DNA of 11,516 nucleotides, taken from the IMG/VR virus record IMGVR_UViG_2778261454_000012; one strand, given 5' to 3'. The stretch's first letter is position 1. Each line of letters opens with the position of its first letter. This DNA comes from a virus (Duplodnaviria > Heunggongvirae > Uroviricota > Caudoviricetes). Below the pieces are notes generated by a model. That model was given only the letters and a program-made list of their open reading frames with translations. It made no database searches and was not told the DNA's origin. This document shows positions 1-11,516 of the stretch, piece by piece. Both the position numbers and the translations under genes were made by a program.

Positions 1-443
1 TGAAACGTAAAACACTGCCTCTGCTGGCGCTGGTTGCCACCACTCTGTTTCTCATCGCATGCGATGACAGAAGTGATGACCTGAAGGCCATCAGTAAATT
101 TAAGGACCTCACCCCACCGCGTTTCAGTGATGTGGTCAGCCACCAGGATGATGTCAGCGAAGAATGGTCACAGGTTGACTACTTATCCGGTCCCACCTTG
201 CAGGTTTTACGTACCCGCCAGTCGCCCGATGGCTGCGAGGATGGCAGTTACTACTACCTCGTGGATATGCAGGAAAAAACCGTCCAGCCACTGATGAATG
301 CGCTGTGTATTGCCGATAACATCAAACTGGAATACCAGGAGGTGACGGACCCGTATACCAAAGAAAAATACTTTGAGTACGCCCATGACGGCAAACTGAT
401 GGGGCGACTGCTGATACCCTCAAACCCTGACAATCAGGAATAA
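1..443 (+). CDS. yafY: Inner-membrane lipoprotein, YafY/YfjS family (5' partial: window starts at the 2nd base of the ATG)
   Basis: Frame from position 3 reads KRKTLPLLALVATTLFLIAC-DD and continues into track ORF 132..443. Lipobox LIAC with Asp at +2 is the inner-membrane retention signal (established for YafY/YfjS). Position upstream of the ykfB-ykfF-yafX block matches CP4-6 gene order from memory. Confidence 0.6.
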   Translation, partial: KRKTLPLLALVATTLFLIACDDRSDDLKAISKFKDLTPPRFSDVVSHQDDVSEEWSQVDYLSGPTLQVLRTRQSPDGCEDGSYYYLVDMQEKTVQPLMNALCIADNIKLEYQEVTDPYTKEKYFEYAHDGKLMGRLLIPSNPDNQE

Positions 444-465
444 AACAACGATAAAGGAGACAAGA

Positions 466-933
466 ATGACAATACTTTCACTAAGTCGGTTTATGCTGGC
501 GGGTGTACTGCTCGCGAGCTTTAATGCCTCTGCTATCCCGGGGTTCTGGCAGCAGGGTTACGGTCAGGGCAATACGGAATACAGCGTGACCGAAGCCAGC
601 GGAAAGACGTTTACCATCAACTGCACAGGGAACCCGGACCAGAATGGTTTCTATCAGCATTCAGTCTTTCTTACCCTTGCCGATGACAAGATGGTCAGTT
701 CGCACGATGACGACACTACTATCACCGTAGTGATGGATCACCAGCAGTACATTATTCCGTCCAGCCTGGGCTGGCGTAACGGCGATAACGCCTGGTTTGA
801 CTTCATCAGCAATATCTCTGAGGCCGGGCAGTTCGACGTCTACGTCAATGACCACAAAGCAGGGACCTTCACTGCGGACCGGAAGAACGCTGAGAAAGTT
901 CTGTCCACTCTCGGAGACTGCAGCAACGACTGA
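466..933 (+). CDS. Secreted/periplasmic protein with N-terminal signal peptide (YkfB-like by position)
   Basis: 155-aa ORF. AAGGAG at 454-459, 6 nt before the ATG. N-terminus [23 protein letters not shown] is hydrophobic and signal-peptide-like. Followed by hairpin terminator at 960-994. Confidence 0.6.
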
Positions 934-959
934 TAGTAGCATCTTCCCCAGCAAATCCA

Positions 960-994
960 CCCCGACAGCTAGCAGGCTGCCGGGGTTTTCTTTT
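960..994 (+). terminator. Rho-independent terminator-like hairpin
   Basis: ccccgacagc / gctgccgggg stem (9 of 10 bp) with 6-nt loop, followed by ttttctttt. Confidence 0.5.
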
Positions 995-1009
995 ATCAGG
1001 AGCCCGAAA

Positions 1010-1249
1010 ATGACCCAATCCGTGTTGCTGCCACCGGGGCCTTTCACCCGGAGACAAGCGCAAGCGGTCACTACCACGTACAGCAATATCACACTCGAAG
1101 ACGACCAGGGCAGTCACTTCCGTCTGGTGGTTCGTGATACTGAAGGCCGGATGGTCTGGCGGGCATGGAACTTTGAGCCGGATGCCGGTGAAGGTCTTAA
1201 CCGCTATATCCGCACCTCAGGCATCCGTACAGACACGGCCACCCGCTGA
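1010..1249 (+). CDS. ykfF: DUF905-family small protein (YkfF-like), 79 aa
   Basis: Internal ATG at 1010 preceded by AGGAG (998-1002). Product [20 protein letters not shown]... is 79 aa; the longer track ORF 797..1249 overlaps the upstream gene and is rejected. Gene order matches CP4-6. Confidence 0.6.
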
Positions 1250-1302
1250 TCGCGAAGCATTTACCCGCATTCACCTCCCCGAACACACTTTATATCCCCA
1301 TA

Positions 1303-1328
1303 CGCCAGCCATCGCCGCTGGCGTTTTT
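1303..1328 (+). terminator. Rho-independent terminator-like hairpin
   Basis: cgccagc / gctggcg 7-bp stem, 7-nt loop, then ttttt. Confidence 0.5.
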
Positions 1329-1346
1329 ATTGACGGAGACATACCC

Positions 1347-1805
1347 ATGATAACACAGACGCAGCACGACCTCGCACCCGCTAACCAACCCGAATTTGAA
1401 CTGACCGTCACGCCGGTCCCCGATGAACAGCGTATCGATTTCTGGCCACAGTACTTTGGCGCTATCCCGCAGTGGCTACTCCTGGAGCCGCATATCTTCG
1501 CCTGGATGGACCGCTTCTGTGAGGGCTACAGCGGTGGTATCTGGTCGTTCTACACCCTCAGCAATGGCGGCGCATTTATGTCCCCCGAGCCTGACAACGA
1601 TGAGACATGGCGTCTGTTTAACTGCCTGAACGGTAACGATGCCCAAATGAGTGCAGAAGCAGCAGGTATTGCTGTCTGCCTGATTGCGTATAGCCACCAT
1701 GCCTGCCGTACAGAATGTGACGCGATGACCGCACACTATTACCGCCTGCGGGAGTATGCCATGCAACATCCAGAGGCTCACGCCATTCTGCGTATTATCG
1801 ACTGA
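1347..1805 (+). CDS. yafX: Antirestriction protein, ArdB/KlcA-like (YafX/YfjX/YeeS-type), 152 aa
   Basis: ATG at 1347 with GGAGA 7 nt upstream. Product MITQTQHDLAPANQPEFELTV...EAHAILRIID matches the conserved CP4-type antirestriction protein from memory. The track ORF 1134..1805 N-terminal extension is rejected. Confidence 0.7.
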   Translation: MITQTQHDLAPANQPEFELTVTPVPDEQRIDFWPQYFGAIPQWLLLEPHIFAWMDRFCEGYSGGIWSFYTLSNGGAFMSPEPDNDETWRLFNCLNGNDAQMSAEAAGIAVCLIAYSHHACRTECDAMTAHYYRLREYAMQHPEAHAILRIID

Positions 1806-1820
1806 CCGAAGGAGCAACAG

Positions 1821-2297
1821 ATGAAACAGCTTTCCTTTTTACCCGGCGAGATGACGCCACAGGACCGGCGTCTCATTCAGCGGGCGCTCAGGGCTCTGGA
1901 CCGCCACCTGCATGAGCCCGGCGTAGCCTTCACCTCTACCCACGCCGTACGTGAATGGCTGCGACTGCATATGGCCGCGCTTGAGCGGGAAGAGTTCCGG
2001 GTGTTGTATCTGGACAACCAGAATCAGTTGATTGCCCATGAAACGCTCTTCACCGGCACGATTAACCGCACCGAGGTGCATCCCCGGGAGGTGGTCAAAC
2101 GTGCTCTGCACTTCAACGCGGCGGCGGTGATACTCGCGCATAACCATCCTTCCGGCGAGACGACACCTAGCCAGGCCGACAAAACCCTCACGCAGCGACT
2201 GGTTCAGGTGCTTCAGCTGGTGGATATCCGTGTCCCTGACCATCTGATTGTCGGTGGCAGGCAAATCTATTCGTTCGCAGAACACGGTCTGCTTTGA
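1821..2297 (+). CDS. ykfG: RadC-like JAB-domain protein (YkfG/YfjY/YeeS family), 158 aa
   Basis: AAGGAG RBS before ATG 1821. Contains the JAMM-like motif region ...AAAVILAHNHPSGETTPSQAD... (HNHPSG is the RadC/JAB signature). Confidence 0.75.
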   Translation: MKQLSFLPGEMTPQDRRLIQRALRALDRHLHEPGVAFTSTHAVREWLRLHMAALEREEFRVLYLDNQNQLIAHETLFTGTINRTEVHPREVVKRALHFNAAAVILAHNHPSGETTPSQADKTLTQRLVQVLQLVDIRVPDHLIVGGRQIYSFAEHGLL

Positions 2298-2305
2298 GGT
2301 ATTAC

Positions 2306-2527
2306 ATGAAAATTATCAGTAAACGCAGGGCAATGACGATATACCGCCAGCATCCTGAGTCCCGAATCTTTCGCTACTGCACCGGCAAATACCAGTGGCA
2401 CGGTAGCGTCTGTCATTACACCGGCAGGGACGTTCCGGATATCGCCGGAGTCCTCGCGGTATACGCCGAACGCCGCCAGGACCGCAATGGGCCCTATACC
2501 TGCCTGATGAGCATCACCCTGAACTGA
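2306..2527 (+). CDS. ykfH: DUF987-family small protein (YkfH/YeeT/YfjZ-neighbour type), 73 aa
   Basis: Internal ATG at 2306 gives MKIISKRRAMTIYRQHPESRIFRYCTGKYQWHG..., 73 aa, with GAGG upstream. Conserved partner immediately upstream of the CbeA-type antitoxin. Confidence 0.6.
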   Translation: MKIISKRRAMTIYRQHPESRIFRYCTGKYQWHGSVCHYTGRDVPDIAGVLAVYAERRQDRNGPYTCLMSITLN

Positions 2528-2545
2528 CAATAGTGGAGAACTGTA

Positions 2546-3225
<680 letters not shown>

Positions 3226-3290
3226 ACATTGCGTACAACCTTCCCGATTTACATTTCTGAACTTCCTCCCTTGTTTACCTATTGCGTAAT

Positions 3291-3326
3291 GCGCCTGCTA
3301 CTACCCGGCAGGCGCGTTATCTTTTT
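3291..3326 (+). terminator. Rho-independent terminator downstream of the toxin gene
   Basis: gcgcctgc / gcaggcgc perfect 8-bp stem, 9-nt loop, followed by gttatcttttt. Confidence 0.6.
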
Positions 3327-3596
3327 ACGGACAAACAATCATGCAACCAGAAGTTGAAGTATTAACCGATCATAATGAGCTAATTTGTTCGAGCTTTATT
3401 GAACACATTGCCAACACATTAAATTTAGGAGTGGTGTACAACTAAACCTGCAGCCAAGGATGTATAGTGAGCGAAGCCCTATCAGGCCTTTTTGGTCAGT
3501 AGATAAGATTGATCTTCGTTGATAGAATTTACTTACACCAGCTGTTACATTAAGATAATTTTTTGGTGGGAGAATGATAAGATCTTACGTAACAAT

Positions 3597-3652
3597 TTGA
3601 TTTTAATGGTGCCGATAATAGGAGTCGAACCTACGACCTTCGCATTACGAAT
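3597..3652 (-). repeat. att-type direct repeat: partial copy of the thrW 3' part (46 nt of tRNA from the anticodon loop to CCA, plus 10 bp of flank)
   Basis: 3597-3652 matches 10063-10118 with one mismatch (3604 t vs 10070 a). Identity stops exactly at attacgaat (anticodon loop). Sequence diverges on both sides. Confidence 0.85.
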
Positions 3653-3843
3653 CTGTAGCACCAATCATAACTATCTGTTTTAGCAAGCATTAACCGCATT
3701 CACTAAGCTATAGTTGATGGCACAAACAGAAAGTTGATGCATGATGTTGTCATGTATATGTCACAAATACGGCACAACGATCTTCAAACATGTAGCCACA
3801 CATCCACAGAAGAGCACAAAGCCTTGCAATCCAGTGCAACGCT

Positions 3844-4071
3844 TTGTGTACCATAGTTTTTCCTTATCAACTACCGCAAGTATCGATCGATGGAGGCTTG
3901 GATGTTAAATTTCATGACTTTGATCACTTGGTGCATCACGAAACTATCGAAGTGCAACTCGCTCATGCCAACGGCGGATCTGTGCGTGGGATTTACAACC
4001 ATGCTCAGTATCTCGATAAGCGCAGAGAAATGATGCAGTGGTGGGCGGATTGGATTGATGAGAAGGCGTGA
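3844..4071 (+). pseudogene. C-terminal fragment of a P4-family tyrosine integrase (remnant)
   Basis: Translation ...KFHDFDHLVHHETIEVQLAHANGGSVRGIYNHAQYLDKRREMMQWWADWIDEKA carries the P4-type C-terminal signature (E-x-x-LAH...VRG-x-YN-x-x-Y...RR-x-MMQ-x-WAD). The frame is open only from 3796 (TAG at 3793-3795); track start is a TTG. The N-terminal ~300 aa are absent. Confidence 0.6.
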
Positions 4072-4165
4072 TGCTTTCCATCTTTCCATTCGGATTCCTC
4101 CTACCAGGCTTGCCGGTATGGTGATATAGTTAATGTTTTACTTTTTATAGTTTATAGATAAACAG

Positions 4166-5215
4166 ATGAAAAATAATAGCATCCAGATAGCAAGGGCGAT
4201 TGCCGCGTTACTTGTAGTGTTTCACCATTTGTTTATACCAATATTCCATAGAGATAATGCCTACACAGATTATCTGAAGCATTTTAATTTTAGCTTCATC
4301 GGTGATTATGCCGTTTATGTTTTTTTCTGTATAAGCGGTTACGTAATGATGATGTCAACGACAAAAAAGCATAAAGGATCGATATCTTTCCTGAGTGACA
4401 GAATATTAAGAATCTATCCTTCGTATATTATATGGACAGTTATCGCCATTGCTTTAGTATACATTGGCAGAGTAATTGGCTATGAAATTGTTAGATTTAA
4501 AAATATTCCTCATAATGTTGTGGATATGATTCAGGTATTGCTTTTGTTGCCTTCTATTTCTGACCACAGCAACTACGCCATGACTTTGCCAACAGCATGG
4601 TCACTTGTGTATGAAATGTATTACTACGTTGTATTTGCTCTATTACTTAAATTTATTAGTGTTCGTAATATCCCGTATGCTCTCATGGGTATATTTGCTT
4701 TATCTTCGTTTGTTATTAACTCAAACTTCCCTCAGGGTAGGTACGGTTGGGTGAATTTATGGTACATTATTGGGGACTATGCGAATATATGTTTTGCATC
4801 GGGGGCGCTGATATATAACATAACAAACAACATCAATAATCCAATAAAATACAAACACCTCCCAATTGCGATTGTATTATTATTTGCGGTATTGCTATCT
4901 TCCAATAACGGCTCACTATACCAAATAAATATAATCATGATGTCAATTACAACGTTCATTTTATTTCTTTTTAGTGACTTTGGGAGTGGTGTGCTTTCTA
5001 GATGTTTTTCATATATCGGTGATGCATCGTATAGTATATACATAACCCACATGCTATTTAATTTAGCGGCTTGGAATTCTTGGACTCAGTATAGCAGTTT
5101 GGTTGGTGCCTTTGGAATTTCTATAACATCAATAGTATTTGGGATTATAGCTTACGAATTCCTTGAAAAACCATTAACGATGGCGTCCAGAACTTTAAAG
5201 CAAAGAGTTGCTTAA
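4166..5215 (+). CDS. Acyltransferase-3 family integral membrane protein, O-antigen/LPS O-acetyltransferase-like (Oac/OafA-type)
   Basis: 349 aa, many hydrophobic segments. N-terminal IARAIAALLVVFHH and RILRIYPSYIIW motifs are typical of the AT3 family. Strongly AT-rich. Convergent with the tailspike-like gene, next to the att repeat, as in Sf6-type conversion modules. Confidence 0.7.
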   Translation: MKNNSIQIARAIAALLVVFHHLFIPIFHRDNAYTDYLKHFNFSFIGDYAVYVFFCISGYVMMMSTTKKHKGSISFLSDRILRIYPSYIIWTVIAIALVYIGRVIGYEIVRFKNIPHNVVDMIQVLLLLPSISDHSNYAMTLPTAWSLVYEMYYYVVFALLLKFISVRNIPYALMGIFALSSFVINSNFPQGRYGWVNLWYIIGDYANICFASGALIYNITNNINNPIKYKHLPIAIVLLFAVLLSSNNGSLYQINIIMMSITTFILFLFSDFGSGVLSRCFSYIGDASYSIYITHMLFNLAAWNSWTQYSSLVGAFGISITSIVFGIIAYEFLEKPLTMASRTLKQRVA

Positions 5216-5218
5216 GAT

Positions 5219-5240
5219 AAAGGGCGCAAACGCGCCCTTT
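5219..5240. terminator. Bidirectional rho-independent terminator between the convergent genes
   Basis: aaagggcgc / gcgcccttt perfect 9-bp stem with aaac loop, A-run on the left and tttattattt on the right. Confidence 0.75.
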
Positions 5241-5245
5241 ATTAT

Positions 5246-7210
5246 TTAGGGGTTTCTGACCTGCCATACTTTGTCATAGCCGTGCGTATACCCACATCGT
5301 GTAACGGTTAGGTGTACTATTGCCATTGATAGAGTAGGCGTATCAAACCGGAAGCGAATATACGTCCCTCCGTTTACTACCTGCTTTACAACGTTAATTC
5401 CTGTTAGATTTTTGTCTCCTGGATCATAATTTGTCCATATATTGCCTGCTGAGGATATATCTGATTGCGTTGTACCAGAAACAGTTGCCAGAATCCTGCC
5501 ACCGGAACCTGATGATGTAACCCCGGATTTTCCAACAGGAAAAATGATTGCTTCCACGCATAAAAAATTCCCGCCAGGCGTCTTGGTTTCCTCCCCCACT
5601 GCGGTAAGGAAAACATCAAGTGATGCACCATATGGAACGATAACCGTCCCCTTGTCTGTAGATACATTGTTAAAAACAGCATTACTGTTGTAGTTTACTG
5701 CCGAAAGAACAGCCCCAATTCTGTTATTAGATATGCTATTTGAGGATTCAGTTCCGTACCACCTTCCATTTATTTTTACGCTTTGCGCCTTGGTAGAGTT
5801 CATTTTAGATGCAGTTACCGAGCTAACAAATCTAAATGTATCCTTGATCTCAAAACCACGGCATTGATTAATGTTGCTGTCGTTGCTATTGACAAAGAAC
5901 TGTACCGCCCTATCGGTCTTTATCATCCCTGTTTGGAATACTGCCATTCCTAATACGTTTGTTGCATTGTCAGGAGTTTTAACCACGGATGTTACTGTTG
6001 AGTCTCGTGTAGTCTGAATCCAACAATCAACAGCATCAAAATATATAGCAGATCGTTCAGTTTCAGCAAATGGTGAGAAATCAAATAACGTATCACCCCT
6101 AACCCCTTCAATACCTAATCCAGTTATTTTTAAATCTCTCCCCCTGTAAAATTTGTGTGGGGTAATACACATATCTGCGGCAATATTATTTGCCGCAACG
6201 TACATCAATACCTCATCATCTGAGAATGCGGGAATTTTTGATACCCTATCATAGGTTGCTCCCCAACAAAAACCGACTCCGCATCTTAATGCCCACGCAG
6301 CTGATAGATTTATAGATGTTGCAACTAGGGTCATGCCAAAGTTGCATGAATACATGAATACTCTGTCGCTTTCAGATACGAAACATGACAATGCCAGACC
6401 AACATTGTATCTCATGAGGTTTACATTGTTTATTTTATATTGCTGCCCACCTCCGGAAGGTTGCCCTAACTCTGAGTTACCTGAAATTACTAGAGGGCAG
6501 CCAACAGTTTCCTCATCGGCATTAACAAAGCCAATGTTTTCAACCAATAATTCATGACACCATGTTGCACAGAAGAAACCGCCGTCTCCGGATGTGTATA
6601 TTACTGAGTGGAGCGGGTTTGTGCCGAAAATATTTAACGAGTACCCATCCCATCTTTTCGCAGTAATATCAATTGAGGTATCGCCAATATACATAGGGCT
6701 ATCAATAAAGATTGGCATGTATGTATTATAGGCCGCAATCAATGCTGCGCTGTCGTTTGTTACCCCAGTCAGGTCAGGCCTAGGCATATCCGTGTCGTGA
6801 TTAATATCATGAACATCAACTTTTGGCGCATCCATCCACGCGCCAAACATACGAGGTGTTACGTACCCCTTCCCTTGCAGATCTCGTTTCCAGCGTTTAC
6901 CACCCGCAGTGACAATGACCATGCCGTTATCATCTGCAGAAGTCGAATCTGTGAAATCGGCCACAAACAGACCACCACCAGTATCACCTGATACTGTCGG
7001 CTTCATGCCTGTAGTGTGGAAGTCGACGAAAATCTTTTGCTGATCTCGCTCAGGCTCAATTGTCCTTAACATTGCTATATCAGGGCATGTCCCGATGTAT
7101 TTAAGACCGTCTTCATTGCCGTCCCATAAAGGAGGTGATGCGGATGTTTTTCTTTTATCGCTACTTGTAACATCAGGAATAGCGATTACTTCTATTGTTG
7201 TTTTCTTCAA
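5246..7210 (-). CDS. Tailspike-like right-handed beta-helix protein (putative polysaccharide depolymerase/receptor-binding protein), 654 aa; start uncertain
   Basis: Long clean ORF. Around residues 115-150, GYVTPRMFGA...LTGVTNDSAALIAAYN resembles the pectate-lyase-fold entry motif (FGA...G-x-TDD-x-AA). Many Asn/Gly-rich repeats downstream. Position and orientation match a P22/Sf6 tailspike. The only start at the ORF head is TTG at 7208-7210, with no Shine-Dalgarno and a stop just upstream. Confidence 0.5.
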   Translation of the reverse strand: MKKTTIEVIAIPDVTSSDKRKTSASPPLWDGNEDGLKYIGTCPDIAMLRTIEPERDQQKIFVDFHTTGMKPTVSGDTGGGLFVADFTDSTSADDNGMVIVTAGGKRWKRDLQGKGYVTPRMFGAWMDAPKVDVHDINHDTDMPRPDLTGVTNDSAALIAAYNTYMPIFIDSPMYIGDTSIDITAKRWDGYSLNIFGTNPLHSVIYTSGDGGFFCATWCHELLVENIGFVNADEETVGCPLVISGNSELGQPSGGGQQYKINNVNLMRYNVGLALSCFVSESDRVFMYSCNFGMTLVATSINLSAAWALRCGVGFCWGATYDRVSKIPAFSDDEVLMYVAANNIAADMCITPHKFYRGRDLKITGLGIEGVRGDTLFDFSPFAETERSAIYFDAVDCWIQTTRDSTVTSVVKTPDNATNVLGMAVFQTGMIKTDRAVQFFVNSNDSNINQCRGFEIKDTFRFVSSVTASKMNSTKAQSVKINGRWYGTESSNSISNNRIGAVLSAVNYNSNAVFNNVSTDKGTVIVPYGASLDVFLTAVGEETKTPGGNFLCVEAIIFPVGKSGVTSSGSGGRILATVSGTTQSDISSAGNIWTNYDPGDKNLTGINVVKQVVNGGTYIRFRFDTPTLSMAIVHLTVTRCGYTHGYDKVWQVRNP

Positions 7211-7290
7211 TTATTTCGACTGGCTGAAAATCTGGCTTGCTCCAAAACTTTACCTTATCGAATATGCAGCATCATTGGTTAAGTAATTTC

Positions 7291-7316
7291 AGGCCGCATA
7301 GTCGGCCTTCATTTTT
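7291..7316 (+). terminator. Terminator-like hairpin (plus orientation) in the junction region
   Basis: aggccg / cggcct 6-bp stem, 6-nt loop catagt, then tcattttt. Confidence 0.4.
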
Positions 7317-7474: not shown

Positions 7475-8443
7475 ATGAGTGAAGTAACAGATTTAGTTGT
7501 TATTGAAAAAGCAAATGCAATGACTGTATTTCAGTCTGCCGACCAGATTGAAGAAATCCTTCAAAAGGTTGAACGTGAAGTTATGTCCTTTGTGCCTGAT
7601 ATCACAACGGCAAAGGGCAGAAAGGAGATCGCTTCTCTGGCGTATAAAGTTGCGCAGACGAAAACATATCTCGATGGCCTTGGCAAAGACCTTGTTGCTG
7701 AACTGAAGGAAATTCCAAAGCTAATTGATGCCAACCGCAAGACAGTACGCGATCGCCTTGATGAACTGAAAGCCAAGGCGCGCCAGCCTCTTACTGATTA
7801 TGAGGAAGAACAGGCGCGGATTAAAGCCGAAGAAGAAGCTAAGGCAGCAGCTGAAGCTCTCGCAAAGCAAATTGAGTCTGACCATGAAATAGCGATTTTG
7901 ATGGATCGCGAATTTGACCGCCAAAGAGAAGAGGCAAGACTCAAAGCGGAGCAGGAAAAGCGAGAGCATGAAGAACGCTTAAAAAGAGAAGCTGAAGAGA
8001 AAGCCAGAGCAGAAGCCGAAGCAAAGGCAAAAGCCGAAATTGAAGCAGCAGCAAGGCGAGAAGCAGAAGCTAAGGCAGCAGCGGAACGTGCAGAGCGTGA
8101 ACGCATTGAAGCTGAGCAACGAGCACAGCGCGAAGCAAAAGAGGCAGCAGAACGAGCTGAAAGAGAAAAGCAGGCGGCAATTGAAGCAGAACGCCGAAAA
8201 GCACAGGAGGAGGCTGAACGAATCCGGCGCGAGGCTGAAGCAAAAGAGCAAGCCAGAATAGCAGAAGAAAAAAGAATCAAGGACGAAGAAGAGCGTAGAG
8301 CAAAGGATAAAGCTCACCGGAAAGAAGTAAATAACAAAATACTTGCTGACCTTATCAAGGTTGGCGCATCAGAAGATGTTGCTAAAAATATCATAACAGC
8401 CATCGTAAAAGGCGAAGTATTCGCAACAAAAATAACCTACTAA
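7475..8443 (+). CDS. Phage early-region protein with a long ER/K-rich charged alpha-helical (coiled-coil or single-alpha-helix) segment, 322 aa
   Basis: ATG at 7475 with GGAGG (7466-7470). N-terminal domain MSEVTDLVVIEK...; central ~150 aa is almost only E/A/K/R/Q in heptad-like repeats (AEEKARAEAEAKAKAEIEAAARREAEAKAAAERAERER...); short C-terminal domain. The upstream 18 codons of track ORF 7421 begin with TTG and are rejected. Confidence 0.65.
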   Translation: MSEVTDLVVIEKANAMTVFQSADQIEEILQKVEREVMSFVPDITTAKGRKEIASLAYKVAQTKTYLDGLGKDLVAELKEIPKLIDANRKTVRDRLDELKAKARQPLTDYEEEQARIKAEEEAKAAAEALAKQIESDHEIAILMDREFDRQREEARLKAEQEKREHEERLKREAEEKARAEAEAKAKAEIEAAARREAEAKAAAERAERERIEAEQRAQREAKEAAERAEREKQAAIEAERRKAQEEAERIRREAEAKEQARIAEEKRIKDEEERRAKDKAHRKEVNNKILADLIKVGASEDVAKNIITAIVKGEVFATKITY

Positions 8444-8467: not shown

Positions 8468-8599
8468 ATGATTCACGCAATCGCGGGAGGCGCTCGCATG
8501 GGTGCCTTCCAACTAAATGAATCTTTACTTGAACGAATCACCCGTAAATTACGTGACGGATGGAAAAGAGTTGAGGTCTTATTATGCGCAATGAAATAG
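8468..8599 (+). CDS. Small hypothetical early protein, 43 aa
   Basis: ATG at 8468 with AAGGA 8 nt upstream. MIHAIAGGARMGAFQLNESLLERITRKLRDGWKRVEVLLCAMK. Overlaps the next ORF. Confidence 0.35.
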   Translation: MIHAIAGGARMGAFQLNESLLERITRKLRDGWKRVEVLLCAMK

Positions 8600-8736
8600 C
8601 CATCAATCACCAGATGCTTCGTGCAGCACAGAACAAAGCAGTAATAGCCAGATTTATTGGTGATTCAAAAATGTGGATTGAAGCAAATAAAGCGATGAAA
8701 TCAGCTATCAACCTTCCGTGGTATCGCAGGAAATGA
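8584..8736 (+). CDS. Small hypothetical early protein, 50 aa
   Basis: ATG at 8584 with GAGG upstream. MRNEIAINHQMLRAAQNKAVIARFIGDSKMWIEANKAMKSAINLPWYRRK. Stop overlaps the next start (ATGA). Confidence 0.4.
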   Translation: MRNEIAINHQMLRAAQNKAVIARFIGDSKMWIEANKAMKSAINLPWYRRK

Positions 8737-8891
8737 GTTTTACAGATAACTGGTCAGACGAAGAATTCATTCGTCAGATGAAAGAATTAATCGGTAACGA
8801 AGGAGATATTCATGTCACTTGCAACCACAGTGAAGGAGAGCAAGTTACAGAGACGCATGTACACGCAGAAAGCTCTCTGGTATCGCCATAA
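8733..8891 (+). CDS. Small hypothetical early protein, 52 aa, acidic
   Basis: ATGA overlap with the preceding ORF (translational coupling). MSFTDNWSDEEFIRQMKELIGNEGDIHVTCNHSEGEQ.... Overlaps the 8812 ORF in another frame, so one of the two may be spurious. Confidence 0.3.
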   Translation: MSFTDNWSDEEFIRQMKELIGNEGDIHVTCNHSEGEQVTETHVHAESSLVSP

Positions 8892-8982
8892 TGGCGACCG
8901 CGAAGGAATGCGGGTATGCCTTAATTTGTCCCGAGTCGAAGTATTAAATCAGCGTTATTTCCTTGGGCCGTGTCCATTCTGA
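8812..8982 (+). CDS. Small hypothetical early protein, 56 aa
   Basis: ATG at 8812 with AGGAG 6 nt upstream. MSLATTVKESKLQRRMYTQKALWYRHNGDREGMRVCLNLSRVEVLNQRYFLGPCPF. Ends 8 nt before the next gene. Confidence 0.45.
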   Translation: MSLATTVKESKLQRRMYTQKALWYRHNGDREGMRVCLNLSRVEVLNQRYFLGPCPF

Positions 8983-8990
8983 GGTGAATT

Positions 8991-9698
8991 ATGGATTTGA
9001 ACAAATTCGATGAGCCATTCAGCCCTGAAGATATCGAATGGCGAATACAGCAAAGCGGTAAAACACGCGATGGCAAGGTGTGGGCTATGGTGCTGGCTTA
9101 TGTCACGAACAGGGCAATCATGAAACGCCTGGACGATGTTTGCGGCAAAGCAGGATGGCGCAATGAATACCGCGATATTCCCAACAACGGCGGCGTTGAA
9201 TGCGGCATATCAATCAGGATTGATTCCGAATGGGTAACCAAATGGGATGCTGCTGAAAACACGCAGGTAGAAGCCGTCAAAGGTGGTCGTTCCGGTGCAA
9301 TGAAGCGCGCTGCCGTTCAGTGGGGAATCGGTCGGTATCTGTATAACATTGAGGAAGGTTTCGCACAAACATCTCTCGATAAAAAGCAGGGATGGCACAG
9401 GGCAAAACTCAAGGATGGAACAGGATTTTACTGGCTCCCTCCATCGCTGCCGGGATGGGCAATCCCAGCATCAGATAACAAACCATCACCAGAAAATACC
9501 AACCAGAAATCTCCATCGGTTGACTGCGAGCAAATCCTGAAAGACTTCAGCGATTATGCGTCAACAGAAACTGACAAGAAAAAACTCATCGAGCGTTATC
9601 AGCGTGACTGGCAATTAATGGCTGGCAACGAGGAGGCGCAGGCTAAATGCGTTCAGGTAATGAACATCAGAGTTAACGAACTAAAACAGGCGGCATAA
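8991..9698 (+). CDS. Single-strand annealing protein, Rad52/Rad22 (Sak-like) family, 235 aa
   Basis: GAGGTG RBS. Contains ...GVECGISIRIDSEW...KGGRSGAMKRAAVQWGIGRYLYN..., the Rad52/22-type GIGRYLY signature. Followed directly (TAAATG) by an ssb start. Confidence 0.7.
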   Translation: MDLNKFDEPFSPEDIEWRIQQSGKTRDGKVWAMVLAYVTNRAIMKRLDDVCGKAGWRNEYRDIPNNGGVECGISIRIDSEWVTKWDAAENTQVEAVKGGRSGAMKRAAVQWGIGRYLYNIEEGFAQTSLDKKQGWHRAKLKDGTGFYWLPPSLPGWAIPASDNKPSPENTNQKSPSVDCEQILKDFSDYASTETDKKKLIERYQRDWQLMAGNEEAQAKCVQVMNIRVNELKQAA

Positions 9699-10058
9699 AT
9701 GGCAAGCAGAGGCGTAAATAAGGTGATTATCCTTGGTCGGGTAGGACAAGACCCGGAAGTTCGATACTCACCATCAGGAACAGCGTTCGCTAAGGGAGCG
9801 TTAAAGCGGGCAGGCATTAGCAACTTCCGCTTCCATGATCTGAGGCATACCTGGGCAAGCTGGCTGGTTCAGTCCGGTGTCTCTCTTCTTGCACTTAAAG
9901 AGATGGGAGGATGGGAAACTCTCGAAATGGTTCAAAGATACGCCCACCTTTCAGCCGGGCATCTCACCGAGCACGCAAGCAAAATCGATGCGATTATAAG
10001 TCGCAATGGCACAAATACGGCACAAGAGGAGAACGTGGTTTACTTAAATGCTAGGTAA
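9699..10058 (+). pseudogene. In-frame chimera: SSB N-terminus (about 29 aa) fused to C-terminal catalytic segment of a tyrosine integrase (about 90 aa)
   Basis: [29 protein letters not shown] is the canonical SSB N-terminus. From about codon 30 the product reads ...[48 protein letters not shown]..., the box II region (H-x-x-R ... Y) of phage integrases. Ends 14 bp before the thrW 3' end, convergent with it. Confidence 0.75.
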
Positions 10059-10072
10059 CTTATTGATTTAAA

Positions 10073-10148
10073 TGGTGCCGATAATAGGAGTCGAACCTAC
10101 GACCTTCGCATTACGAATGCGCTGCTCTACCAACTGAGCTATATCGGC
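10073..10148 (-). tRNA. thrW: tRNA-Thr (anticodon CGU)
   Basis: Reverse complement reads GCCGATATAGCTCAGTTGGTAGAGCAGCGCATTCGTAATGCGAAGGTCGTAGGTTCGACTCCTATTATCGGCACCA, 76 nt. It has the D-arm GCTCAGTTGGTAGAGC, anticodon loop with CGT, T-arm GGTTCGACTCC and encoded CCA. Confidence 0.95.
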
Positions 10149-10262: not shown

Positions 10263-11516
10263 TTACGCACGAATGGTGTAATCACCAATGCCGATCCACT
10301 TGTAAGTGGTCAGTGCTTCCAGCCCCATTGGGCCACGCGCGTGGAGTTTTTGTGTGCTTACCGCCACTTCCGCACCCAGACCAAACTGGCCGCCGTCGGT
10401 AAAACGCGTAGAGGCGTTAACGTAAACAGCGGACGAATCCACTTCGTTAACAAAACGCTGGGCGTTGCGCATATCGCGGGTCAGGATCGCATCGGAGTGT
10501 TGTGTGCCGTGTTCACGAATATGGGCGATGGCATCGTCAAGATCGCTGACGATTTTGACGTTCAAATCTAATGACAGAAACTCATCGTCATACTCTTCGG
10601 CTTTAACAGCAACCACCTTCGCAGGGCCTGCCTGCAACTGCGCCAGTGCAGCTGCATCTGCGTGTAATGTCACGCCGCTTTCCGCCATTTGTTTGCTTAA
10701 TGCGGGCAGGAAGCTATCGGCGATGTTTTTATTCACCAGCAACGTTTCAACCGTATTACATGTGCTCGGACGCTGAGTTTTCGCGTTGACGATCACTTTT
10801 AATGCTTCAGCGATCTCTACACTTTCATCAACGTAAATATGGCATACGCCTATACCACCTGTGATCACCGGGATTGTCGACTGTTCACGGCACAGTTTAT
10901 GCAAACCAGCGCCACCACGCGGGATCAGCATGTCGATGTATTTATCCATACGCAGCATTTCACTGACCAGCGCACGGTCAGGATTATCAATCGCCTGCAC
11001 GGCACCCGCCGGTAAGCCGCAGGATTTCAGGGCGTCCTGAATCACCGCCACCGTTGCAGCGTTAGTGCGACACGTTTCTTTGCCACCGCGCAGGATCACC
11101 GCATTACCGGTTTTCAGGCACAGCGAAGCGACATCAACCGTCACGTTCGGGCGCGCTTCATAAATCACGCCAATAACCCCCAGCGGTACGCGACGACGCT
11201 CAAGACGCAGGCCGCTGTCCAGTACGCCGCCATCGATTACCTGCCCCACCGGATCGGCGAGGTTGCACACCTGACGTACATCGTCGGCAATGCCTTTCAG
11301 CCGTGCGGGCGTCAGTGCCAGACGGTCAAGCATCGCTTCGCTAAGGCCATTGGCTCGCGCGTCAGCAACATCCTGGGCGTTAGCGTTGAGGATGATTTCG
11401 CTTTGTGCTTCCAGTTCATCGGCGATTTTTTCCAGCACGCGATTTTTTTCGCGGCTGGAGAGTTGCGCTAATTTATACGAGGCTTGCTTCGCGGCAATGC
11501 CCATTTGTTCCAGCAT
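10263..11516 (-). CDS. proA: Gamma-glutamyl phosphate reductase (proline biosynthesis), 417 aa, complete
   Basis: Translation [38 protein letters not shown]...[12 protein letters not shown] matches E. coli ProA in full. Start codon is the last three bases of the window. Confidence 0.97.

Follow-up and report, generated by a model that had tools for sequence, protein, structure and literature searches.

The stretch of DNA analysed here (the window; 11,516 nt, IMG/VR record IMGVR_UViG_2778261454_000012) comes from an Escherichia coli assembly (GCA_002518125.1) and raises the question of why a membrane acyltransferase gene and a convergent 654-codon frame for a beta-helix protein stand long and uninterrupted in a prophage that has lost its other structural genes. 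A sequence-only reading had proposed that the pair is retained for a host-side function. Our analysis points elsewhere: very probably, a decayed Sf6/P22-like prophage occupies thrW of E. coli, arranged in tandem with a CP4-6-like island, and the region is its attL-proximal end, in which the tailspike piece is a pseudogene made by deletion while the acetyltransferase gene is intact. The remnant is a known kind of phage relic and not a new host cassette. Its features are as follows.

3597..3652, no strand: attL, in which the 3' part of thrW is partially duplicated together with a few neighbouring bases; left border of the remnant, with the CP4-6-like island to its left.
3944..4071, plus strand: what is left of the 3' end of an IntS-type integrase gene (~43 terminal codons and stop), a mosaic boundary relic upstream of the acyltransferase.
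4122..4130, plus strand: possible extended -10 promoter (TGaTATAGT) for the acyltransferase, from reading of the sequence.
4166..5215, plus strand: Oac-like lysogenic-conversion gene for an intact, AT3-only membrane acyltransferase of 349 aa (PF01757, phrog_3333, motifs).
5219..5240, no strand: bidirectional intrinsic terminator hairpin common to both convergent genes, AAAGGGCGC-AAAC-GCGCCCTTT.
5246..7114, minus strand: 5'-truncated tailspike gene, codons 121-742 of a 742-aa P22-like tailspike (homology, fold).
7115..7210, minus strand: read-through of 32 codons by which the mechanical 654-aa ORF reaches its TTG start; not tailspike sequence.
7126..7286, plus strand: last 53 codons of an early-left-operon gene (121 aa, lambdoid/P22-like phage), on the right side of the junction 7114/7115.
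7475-8443, plus strand: coiled-coil protein of 322 aa, surviving early-left gene.
8468-8599, plus strand: cIII, surviving early-left gene.
8584-8736, plus strand: kil, surviving early-left gene.
8812-8982, plus strand: 56-aa protein, surviving early-left gene.
8991-9698, plus strand: Rad52/Erf-like annealing protein, surviving early-left gene.
9699..10058, plus strand: fusion ORF of the first ~31 codons of ssb and the last ~89 codons of a thrW-type integrase; second internal deletion, junction about 9791/9792.
10063..10148, minus strand: attR (10063-10118, from comparison of the att repeats) within the intact tRNA-Thr(CGU) gene thrW (10073-10148).
10263-11516: proA, adjoining thrW.

The remnant measures 6.4 kb and is bounded by 56-bp thrW att repeats (3597-3652 and 10063-10118; 55/56 identical), with the CP4-6-like island adjoining. 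K-12-type genomes match the window solely outside this insert. G+C content is 0.35-0.46 over the gene pair versus 0.49-0.59 in the flanks. As the sequence-only reading had stated, no structural genes are left besides the tailspike piece: profile searches of the window ORFs found no other virion gene. The P22/Sf6-type lysogenic conversion layout that it proposed also holds, in that the Sf6 conversion end (gene 14 tailspike, oac, intS, attP) has an identical order and orientation of int, oac, terminator, and convergent tailspike gene, and the acyltransferase occupies the same slot between int/att and the convergent tailspike in Sf6 and in argW and thrW prophages. Unlike Sf6, the window element lies at thrW rather than argW, is a non-inducible remnant, and carries a tailspike gene without codons 1-120. 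The int relic shares 77% identity with the C-terminal end of Sf6 Int and, in P22-like prophages at thrW such as that of E. coli HS, the same relic is annotated 'integrase, missing N-terminus'. The hairpin shared by the two convergent genes was likewise confirmed as a perfect bidirectional terminator, with a 9-bp stem, a 4-nt loop, and T-runs on both sides. A terminator scan missed it, probably because flanking bases lengthen the stem and consume the T-run; folded directly, it gave -21.9 kcal/mol on the plus strand (z = -5.6) and -18.2 kcal/mol on the minus strand (z = -4.5).

Comparison with intact P22-like prophages at argW (mip270_04, NZ_CM132654; CP126295) clarified what the 654-aa ORF is. 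Homology to these prophages begins at 3944, and over 3944-7114 they share 99.7-99.9% DNA identity with the window, including an identical acetyltransferase and identical tailspike residues 121-742; unlike in the window, their intS and 742-aa tailspike genes are full-length and their set of virion, lysis, and replication genes is complete. Residues 33-654 of the window ORF correspond to residues 121-742 of the mip270_04 tailspike with 622 of 622 identical. The tailspike homology ends at 7114, and codons 1-32 (7115-7210) run antisense to an unrelated early-left gene, the 3' end of which lies on the plus strand from 7126. Thus, although the ORF on the minus strand is open throughout in the ORF list (5246-7210), as is the acyltransferase ORF, the earlier description of an AT-rich pair of long uninterrupted ORFs stands only for the open frames and the low G+C content; the 654-aa ORF is not a whole gene, and only its codons 33-654 are tailspike. 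Sequence reading found no Shine-Dalgarno upstream of its TTG start, and a consensus scan found no promoter-like site upstream on the minus strand, leaving the window tailspike copy with no native start, ribosome-binding site or promoter. The gene's own start codon, arc, the ejection-protein genes, and the late genes, all present in relatives, are missing in the window. Judged from these alignments, the '654-aa ORF' is a chance extension of a tailspike piece into antisense DNA.

The part that is absent can be named. Residues 1-116 of the full-length 742-aa homologue are the Sf6/P22 head-binding domain and are near-identical to residues 1-116 of Sf6 gp14 (E=3.7e-64). PF09008, which represents this domain, is present in the 742-aa form but had no Pfam match in the window ORF, whose alignment to that form starts at residue 121, and the PHROG tailspike profile aligns to the window ORF from profile position 120. 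Hence, the N-terminal domain, which had been suspected to be different or domesticated, was deleted and not replaced (residues 1-120 of the 742-aa form are missing), and the earlier reader did not recognise a head-binding domain because the missing 120 residues are that domain. What is retained comprises the internal TSP2-like domain, the beta-helix, and the C-terminal domain. In agreement with the tailspike-like beta-helix proposed from the sequence, an AlphaFold2 monomer model of the ORF (mean pLDDT 81.3) was nearly all beta, and its top 40 Foldseek matches in the PDB were phage tailspikes or depolymerases, including those of Sf6 and HK620, with probability 1.00. The model therefore predicts that a right-handed parallel beta-helix receptor-binding or catalytic domain with its putative C-terminal trimerisation part is present in the window protein. 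PF27114 (Phage_tail_beta) was precomputed for the product while the local Pfam copy gave no significant match for the 654-aa ORF. Among the homologues listed (n=33; E <= 1e-10; 421-1023 aa), all 33 carry this tail beta-helix domain, and the majority also carry an N-terminal adaptor (PF09008, PF18668 or PF12571).

The Sf6 endorhamnosidase is unrelated in sequence to the window receptor-binding part and has the fold alone in common with it. Modular tailspikes of lytic phages (Kuttervirus-like, Kagunavirus, and Dhillonvirus; CBA120 TSP2, 5w6p/6w4q) are 38-44% identical over the whole 622-aa receptor-binding part and share the internal N-terminal domain and the beta-helix fold; their adaptors differ, e.g. 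PF18668 in place of PF09008, whereas the window copy is without any adaptor. These best phage-record relatives are mostly unannotated. NCBIfam held no model for the tailspike ORF, the acyltransferase or the coiled-coil protein.

The two internal junctions account for the rest of the remnant. To the right of 7114/7115, 48 of the 53 residues encoded by 7126-7286 match the C-terminal end of a protein whose gene lies upstream of cIII in strain GPEC859, and a terminator-like hairpin (7291-7308) follows the end of this gene. Microhomology and IS ends were looked for at this junction and none were found. In the fusion ORF (9699-10058), Pfam matched SSB over residues 6-32 and Phage_integrase over residues 30-86, and the homology of the full-length integrase of L009 (GCA_974498245.1) to the window starts at 9792. 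L009 carries another decayed P22-like remnant at thrW-proA, with the same attL flank, int relic, acetyltransferase, and tailspike (99.75-100%) and with most phage genes gone; unlike in the window, the head-binding domain is still present in its tailspike, which an IS interrupts, its left flank is different, and arc, fragments of ejection proteins, and a full integrase remain. We considered that the window junctions might be assembly artefacts, given that the source is a 40-kb contig of a draft genome. This is extremely improbable: a 6477-bp contig of a separate Logan assembly (run SRR3993847), which may stem from the same isolate, is 100% identical over both junctions, and the flanks are colinear with K-12. 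A 30-mer across the junction (AAGACCGTCTTCATTGCCGTCCCATAAAGG) had no matches in the genome-contig collection, which holds one genome per species and hence gives this result little weight.

These data allowed us to ask whether the acetyltransferase and the beta-helix enzyme without its head-binding domain were kept together as a host cassette that modifies or trims surface polysaccharide, or excludes phages, independently of a virion. Both frames are open, the whole predicted beta-helix and C-terminal domain are retained, and the pair travels together in argW-type and thrW-type P22-like prophages. Moreover, there is a precedent. WceF of Pantoea stewartii, encoded in an exopolysaccharide gene cluster, is made complete and is exported. 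Its structure (6tgf) is a tailspike-like parallel beta-helix encoded in a bacterial genome, as in the window; unlike WceF, the window gene is a fresh deletion product without start signals or an export signal. Against a host cassette, the ORF opens with 32 codons of antisense early-left DNA from a TTG lacking start signals, and the product has no signal peptide or export route. The protein is 100% identical to the phage copies, and its DNA differs from intact copies at three bases, all synonymous. The truncated ORF is carried by only 2 contigs as opposed to 136 collection blocks with the exact acyltransferase protein, and other relics of this tailspike beside the same acetyltransferase (the IS-split copy and a 510-bp 3' stub) form a pattern of neutral decay. 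Because the differences amount to three synonymous ones in the tailspike and none in the acyltransferase, the decay is too recent to show selection and an argument from dN/dS for retention is impossible; because the acyltransferase DNA is identical to that of intact-prophage copies, there is no evidence of selective retention. Finally, PADLOC-DB models were compared with the acetyltransferase, the tailspike and fusion ORFs, and the coiled-coil and Rad52-like proteins; none matched at E <= 0.001, and we rejected the reading as a defence system. The tailspike gene is an ordinary phage gene, found at full length in complete P22-like prophages with capsid, portal, terminase, and ejection proteins, which is a refuting condition that the sequence-only reading had itself named and gives no support to a domesticated receptor-binding enzyme. 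Joint retention for the host is thus highly improbable.

P22 tailspike without its N-terminal domain folds and stays active in vitro. The truncated frame is still open for 654 codons, and a low-level product may arise from it. A specific scenario, to which we attach slightly less credence still than to the host cassette, is that a cryptic start yields small amounts of the tailspike without its head-binding domain, which folds as an active trimeric glycanase and joins the acetyltransferase in remodelling or sensing the polysaccharide of its own cell; if true, the locus would show tailspike domestication as in WceF at an early stage.

With the tailspike piece read as a deletion-made pseudogene, the acyltransferase is the sole product of the remnant that is plausibly active. 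The proposed acyltransferase-3 assignment was borne out: PF01757 matches over residues 4-330 (E=1.1e-30; profile 2-325 of 326, i.e. full-length), Pfam finds no other domain and no fused SGNH, and the protein matches phrog_3333 'O-acetyltransferase' (E=1.4e-50). A crude Kyte-Doolittle scan gave eight strongly hydrophobic segments, about ten TM helices being expected for the AT3 family. AT3 family motifs are R/K-X10-H in TM1 and RXXR in the first cytoplasmic loop (PMC9558356), and the window protein contains R10-X10-H21 and R79-I-L-R82, both of which align with residues of Sf6 Oac, itself AT3-only with the R-X10-H and RXXR motifs. The comparison with Oac is nevertheless mixed, as the motifs align but the 32% identity is limited to 93 N-terminal residues. 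As a closest known relative, we considered Kapi1, a P22-like phage of E. coli that uses argW and modifies O-antigen, and rejected it: the acyltransferase query retrieved no Escherichia phage record at E <= 1e-5, and the Kapi1 paper describes limited homology to acyltransferases only, and in another gene.

A substrate other than O-antigen (e.g. enterobacterial common antigen, colanic acid, capsule or peptidoglycan) seems rather unlikely to us. In its favour, AT3 proteins modify many surface glycans (review PMC9558356), the similarity to Sf6 Oac is low, and the nearest phage-record relatives are less than 35% identical and variously annotated. However, it is in this slot, between int and a convergent tailspike, that Sf6 has its O-antigen conversion gene, and the linked tailspike finds its best structural matches among depolymerases of O-antigen or capsule.

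Whether the gene is expressed is a separate matter. The whole remnant, acetyltransferase included, could be silent junk of very recent decay, with the gene intact for lack of time to mutate; there are zero base differences from intact-prophage copies, the acetyltransferase of the argW phages lies 94 nt downstream of intS and may need int-side transcription, which is lost here, and a two-hexamer consensus scan found no promoter-like site upstream of the acyltransferase. On the other hand, Sf6 oac has its own annotated promoter and terminator at positions equivalent to those of the remnant, an extended -10 of the form TGnTATAGT lies at 4122-4130, and lysogens often express accessory 'moron' loci at a high level (PMC7067206). 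A moron would have a promoter and terminator of its own and a base composition unlike its neighbours; the window gene shows the terminator and a G+C content of 0.35 versus about 0.5, and for a promoter the possible extended -10, which the consensus scan did not pick up. The same intact acetyltransferase also occurs in myovirus-type prophages with a tailspike stub, although these were looked up by exact protein and intactness there is true by construction. On balance, we regard complete silence as unlikely, if less so than a substrate other than O-antigen.

Very probably, the ancestral phage of this locus carried, next to att, the int relic, the AT3-only acetyltransferase gene, the bidirectional terminator, and the convergent 742-aa tailspike gene. 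A first, illegitimate deletion (7114/7115) would have brought tailspike codon 121 up against the 3' end of the early-left gene. With it would have gone the start codon and head-binding domain of the tailspike, the promoter of the late operon, and every gene for virion, lysis, replication, and immunity. Through a second deletion (9791/9792), ssb would have become joined to the C-terminal part of the integrase, leaving the element immobile. The acetyltransferase gene is intact and, with its low G+C content, possible extended -10, and own terminator, probably self-contained. What the analysis shows is the anatomy, homologies, truncation, fold, and motifs; the expression, substrate, and exclusion effect of the enzyme are our inference. 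By analogy to Sf6 Oac, we infer that the enzyme would transfer acetyl from cytoplasmic acetyl-CoA across the inner membrane to a sugar of the O-antigen or another surface glycan, which would change the serotype and block phages with a cognate tailspike.

The locus illustrates how, in a dead prophage, a deletion product may run on by chance into foreign DNA and pass for a long gene, a tempting misreading that comparison with the full-length phage copy settles. The acetyltransferase is a divergent, uncharacterised Oac-like enzyme of many E. coli prophages and could alter O-antigen serology and phage susceptibility even though the prophage is dead, as serotype-converting remnants do in Shigella flexneri. 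The several relics of one tailspike beside an identical acetyltransferase show on a small scale how recombination in flanking relics carries conversion cassettes from one prophage type to another.

The window is matched at 100% identity (11,516 of 11,516 bases) by contig NODD01000031.1 of the E. coli assembly GCA_002518125.1, and in K-12-type genomes the match is confined to the two window ends, 44% of the window. Because the 56-bp direct repeats that flank the 6.4-kb insert are the 3' part of thrW, we identify them as att sites. The layout is as follows.

Left end, CP4-6-type island genes: cbtA/cbeA, radC and an antirestriction gene
3597-3652 and 10063-10118, 56-bp att direct repeats, 55 of 56 positions identical
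3944-4071, left part of the insert, IntS-type integrase relic, last ~43 codons
4166-5215, + strand, full-length Acyl_transf_3 protein (PF01757, E=1.1e-30; phrog_3333 'O-acetyltransferase', E=1.4e-50)
5246-7210, - strand, mechanical 654-codon frame with a TTG start
Right of the 7114/7115 junction, early-left genes: 322-aa coiled-coil protein, cIII, kil, a 56-aa protein and a Rad52/Erf-like annealing protein
9699-10058, + strand, 119-codon ssb-integrase fusion ORF: first ~31 codons of a phage ssb and last ~89 codons of a thrW-type integrase
10073-10148, - strand, right end, thrW, tRNA-Thr(CGU)
10263-11516, - strand, right end, proA

The CP4-6-like island (1-3596; a YfjT/YkfB-like gene, antirestriction, RadC, DUF987 and the CbeA/CbtA toxin-antitoxin) directly adjoins attL, and thrW therefore holds two mobile elements in tandem. 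Profile searches with Pfam and PHROG found no virion gene inside the insert other than the tailspike. Much of the sequence-only reading of the acyltransferase-tailspike pair stands: its full-length acyltransferase, the loss of the remaining structural genes, the AT-richness (G+C drops to 0.35-0.46 across the pair) and the shared terminator, a perfect hairpin at the convergence point (5219-5240) with T-runs on both sides and folding energies of -21.9 kcal/mol (z -5.6) on one strand and -18.2 kcal/mol (z -4.5) on the other. The proposed P22/Sf6-type layout is also supported, Sf6 having the same order of tailspike, terminator, convergent oac, oac promoter, intS and attP.

The same reading held that the pair is retained for a host-side function and that the 654-aa protein may be a domesticated receptor-binding enzyme. 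Comparison with intact copies does not support this. What was found is the very situation that the reading itself had named as its refutation, an ordinary tailspike embedded in complete prophages. A search of 5,426 complete E. coli genomes located the pair in a single strain, mip270_04 (99.9% identity), and there it sits at argW in a complete P22-like prophage with intS, the acyltransferase, a 742-aa tailspike, arc, ejection proteins, needle, gp10 and gp4 as well as capsid, portal, terminase, lysis and nin genes. From residue 33 to residue 654 the window ORF matches residues 121-742 of this tailspike without a single difference (622/622). The full-length protein begins with a canonical head-binding domain, residues 1-116, which is related to Sf6 gp14 (E=3.7e-64) and the P22 tailspike (E about 1e-51). 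Tailspike DNA homology ends at base 7114. From 7126 on, the + strand carries the 3' end (53 codons) of an early-left-operon gene for a 121-aa protein, which in other lambdoid prophages stands in front of cIII; therefore, codons 1-32 of the 654-aa frame are the antisense of an unrelated gene. The frame exists and is predicted to encode a tailspike fold, but its N-terminus, correctly noted as unlike a head-binding domain, is so because that domain was deleted and not because it is novel. Just past the junction, residues 118-213 of the full-length protein form an internal domain common to CBA120 TSP2 and other spikes, which in other E. coli genomes is annotated within 'head-binding domain-containing' tailspikes. 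No Shine-Dalgarno sequence precedes the TTG at 7210, and a promoter scan found no promoter-like site upstream of it on the - strand. Since the fragment lacks start signals, a promoter and a route for export, we take it to be a pseudogene. Apart from the source contig, the 654-aa ORF was found on just one other, a 6,477-bp Logan contig that has the att repeats at its ends. Relative to the intact copies, the tailspike has three base differences, all synonymous, and the acetyltransferase has none.

The cut gene at the deletion (7126-7286, + strand), which lies upstream of cIII, encodes a small membrane protein with a hydrophobic C-terminus (LLVTSGIAITSIVVFFNYFDWLKIW...); about 2,600 E. coli genomes contain sequence that matches it.

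The 622 retained tailspike residues were modelled with AlphaFold2 (mean pLDDT 81.3); the model is nearly all beta, and Foldseek against the PDB matched it at probability 1.00 to phage tailspike depolymerases, CBA120 TSP2, WceF and the Sf6 and HK620 tailspikes. PF27114 is present in all 33 sequence homologues (421-1023 aa) that were listed with E <= 1e-10, most also with a recognised N-terminal adaptor (PF09008, PF18668 or PF12571), and several lytic phage groups hold full-length relatives with 38-44% identity. We conclude that the gene encodes a modular phage receptor-binding protein of the ordinary sort.

The exact acetyltransferase protein was found in 136 blocks of the assembly collection, and its contexts were read in loci L005-L014. 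In five P22-like prophages (L007, L010-L013), argW, intS and the acetyltransferase are followed by the intact 742-aa tailspike, with frames intact. In four myovirus-type argW prophages (L005, L006, L008, L014), which share the segment 3944-5756 (locus coordinates 9779-11591), the tailspike gene is reduced to a stub, its 3'-terminal 510 bp. This stub and the 3' end of intS flank the identical acetyltransferase gene, and myovirus genes for tail fibre and baseplate lie beyond the stub. Recombination in these flanking relics seems to be how the cassette passes from one prophage type to another. Locus L009 (GCA_974498245.1, 9438-19277) is a second decayed thrW remnant with the attL flank and cassette as in the window. 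An IS (DDE_Tnp_1) at the equivalent of ~6779-6784 interrupts its otherwise full-length tailspike, while arc, gp16 fragments and an intact full integrase are still present.

The P22-like prophage at thrW of E. coli HS has the same integrase relic beside attL, and in such prophages what comes after the relic is other cargo, then a tailspike, arc and the ejection proteins. Because the cargo after the relic differs in each prophage, the site appears to be a hot spot at which conversion genes recombine. The attL flank and relic (3605-4053; compared loci L003 and L004) are 98-99% conserved in 34 complete E. coli genomes, those with thrW-type P22-like prophages. On the right, homology to the full thrW-type integrase starts at 9792, and the prophage therefore has a second internal deletion with its junction at about 9791/9792.

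The coiled-coil protein of the early-left operon (7421/7475-8443, + strand; 322-340 aa) is rich in Glu, Ala, Arg and Lys, and its gene is very strongly skewed towards purines (AT skew up to 0.58). Relatives are named 'TolA' or 'coiled-coil domain-containing' in RefSeq, its PHROGs entry is phrog_1376 (function unknown), and it has no match in Pfam or PADLOC.

PADLOC defence models gave no match. Altogether, this cryptic prophage contains two new, uncharacterised members of kinds already known, a conversion gene that is Oac-like and the relic of a P22-type tailspike. The acetyltransferase, an AT3-only protein, is just 32% identical to Sf6 Oac across 93 residues; it contains the R/K-X10-H (R10...H21) and RXXR (R79-R82) motifs, which a review of AT3 proteins gives as functionally essential (PMC9558356). 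Its expression is plausible, judging from a possible extended -10 element at 4122-4130 and its own downstream terminator. The enzyme would act from the periplasmic side, acetylating an O-antigen sugar or one in a related surface glycan. Such acetylation would shield the cell from phages with the cognate tailspike, as Oac does for Sf6 (PMC9558356).
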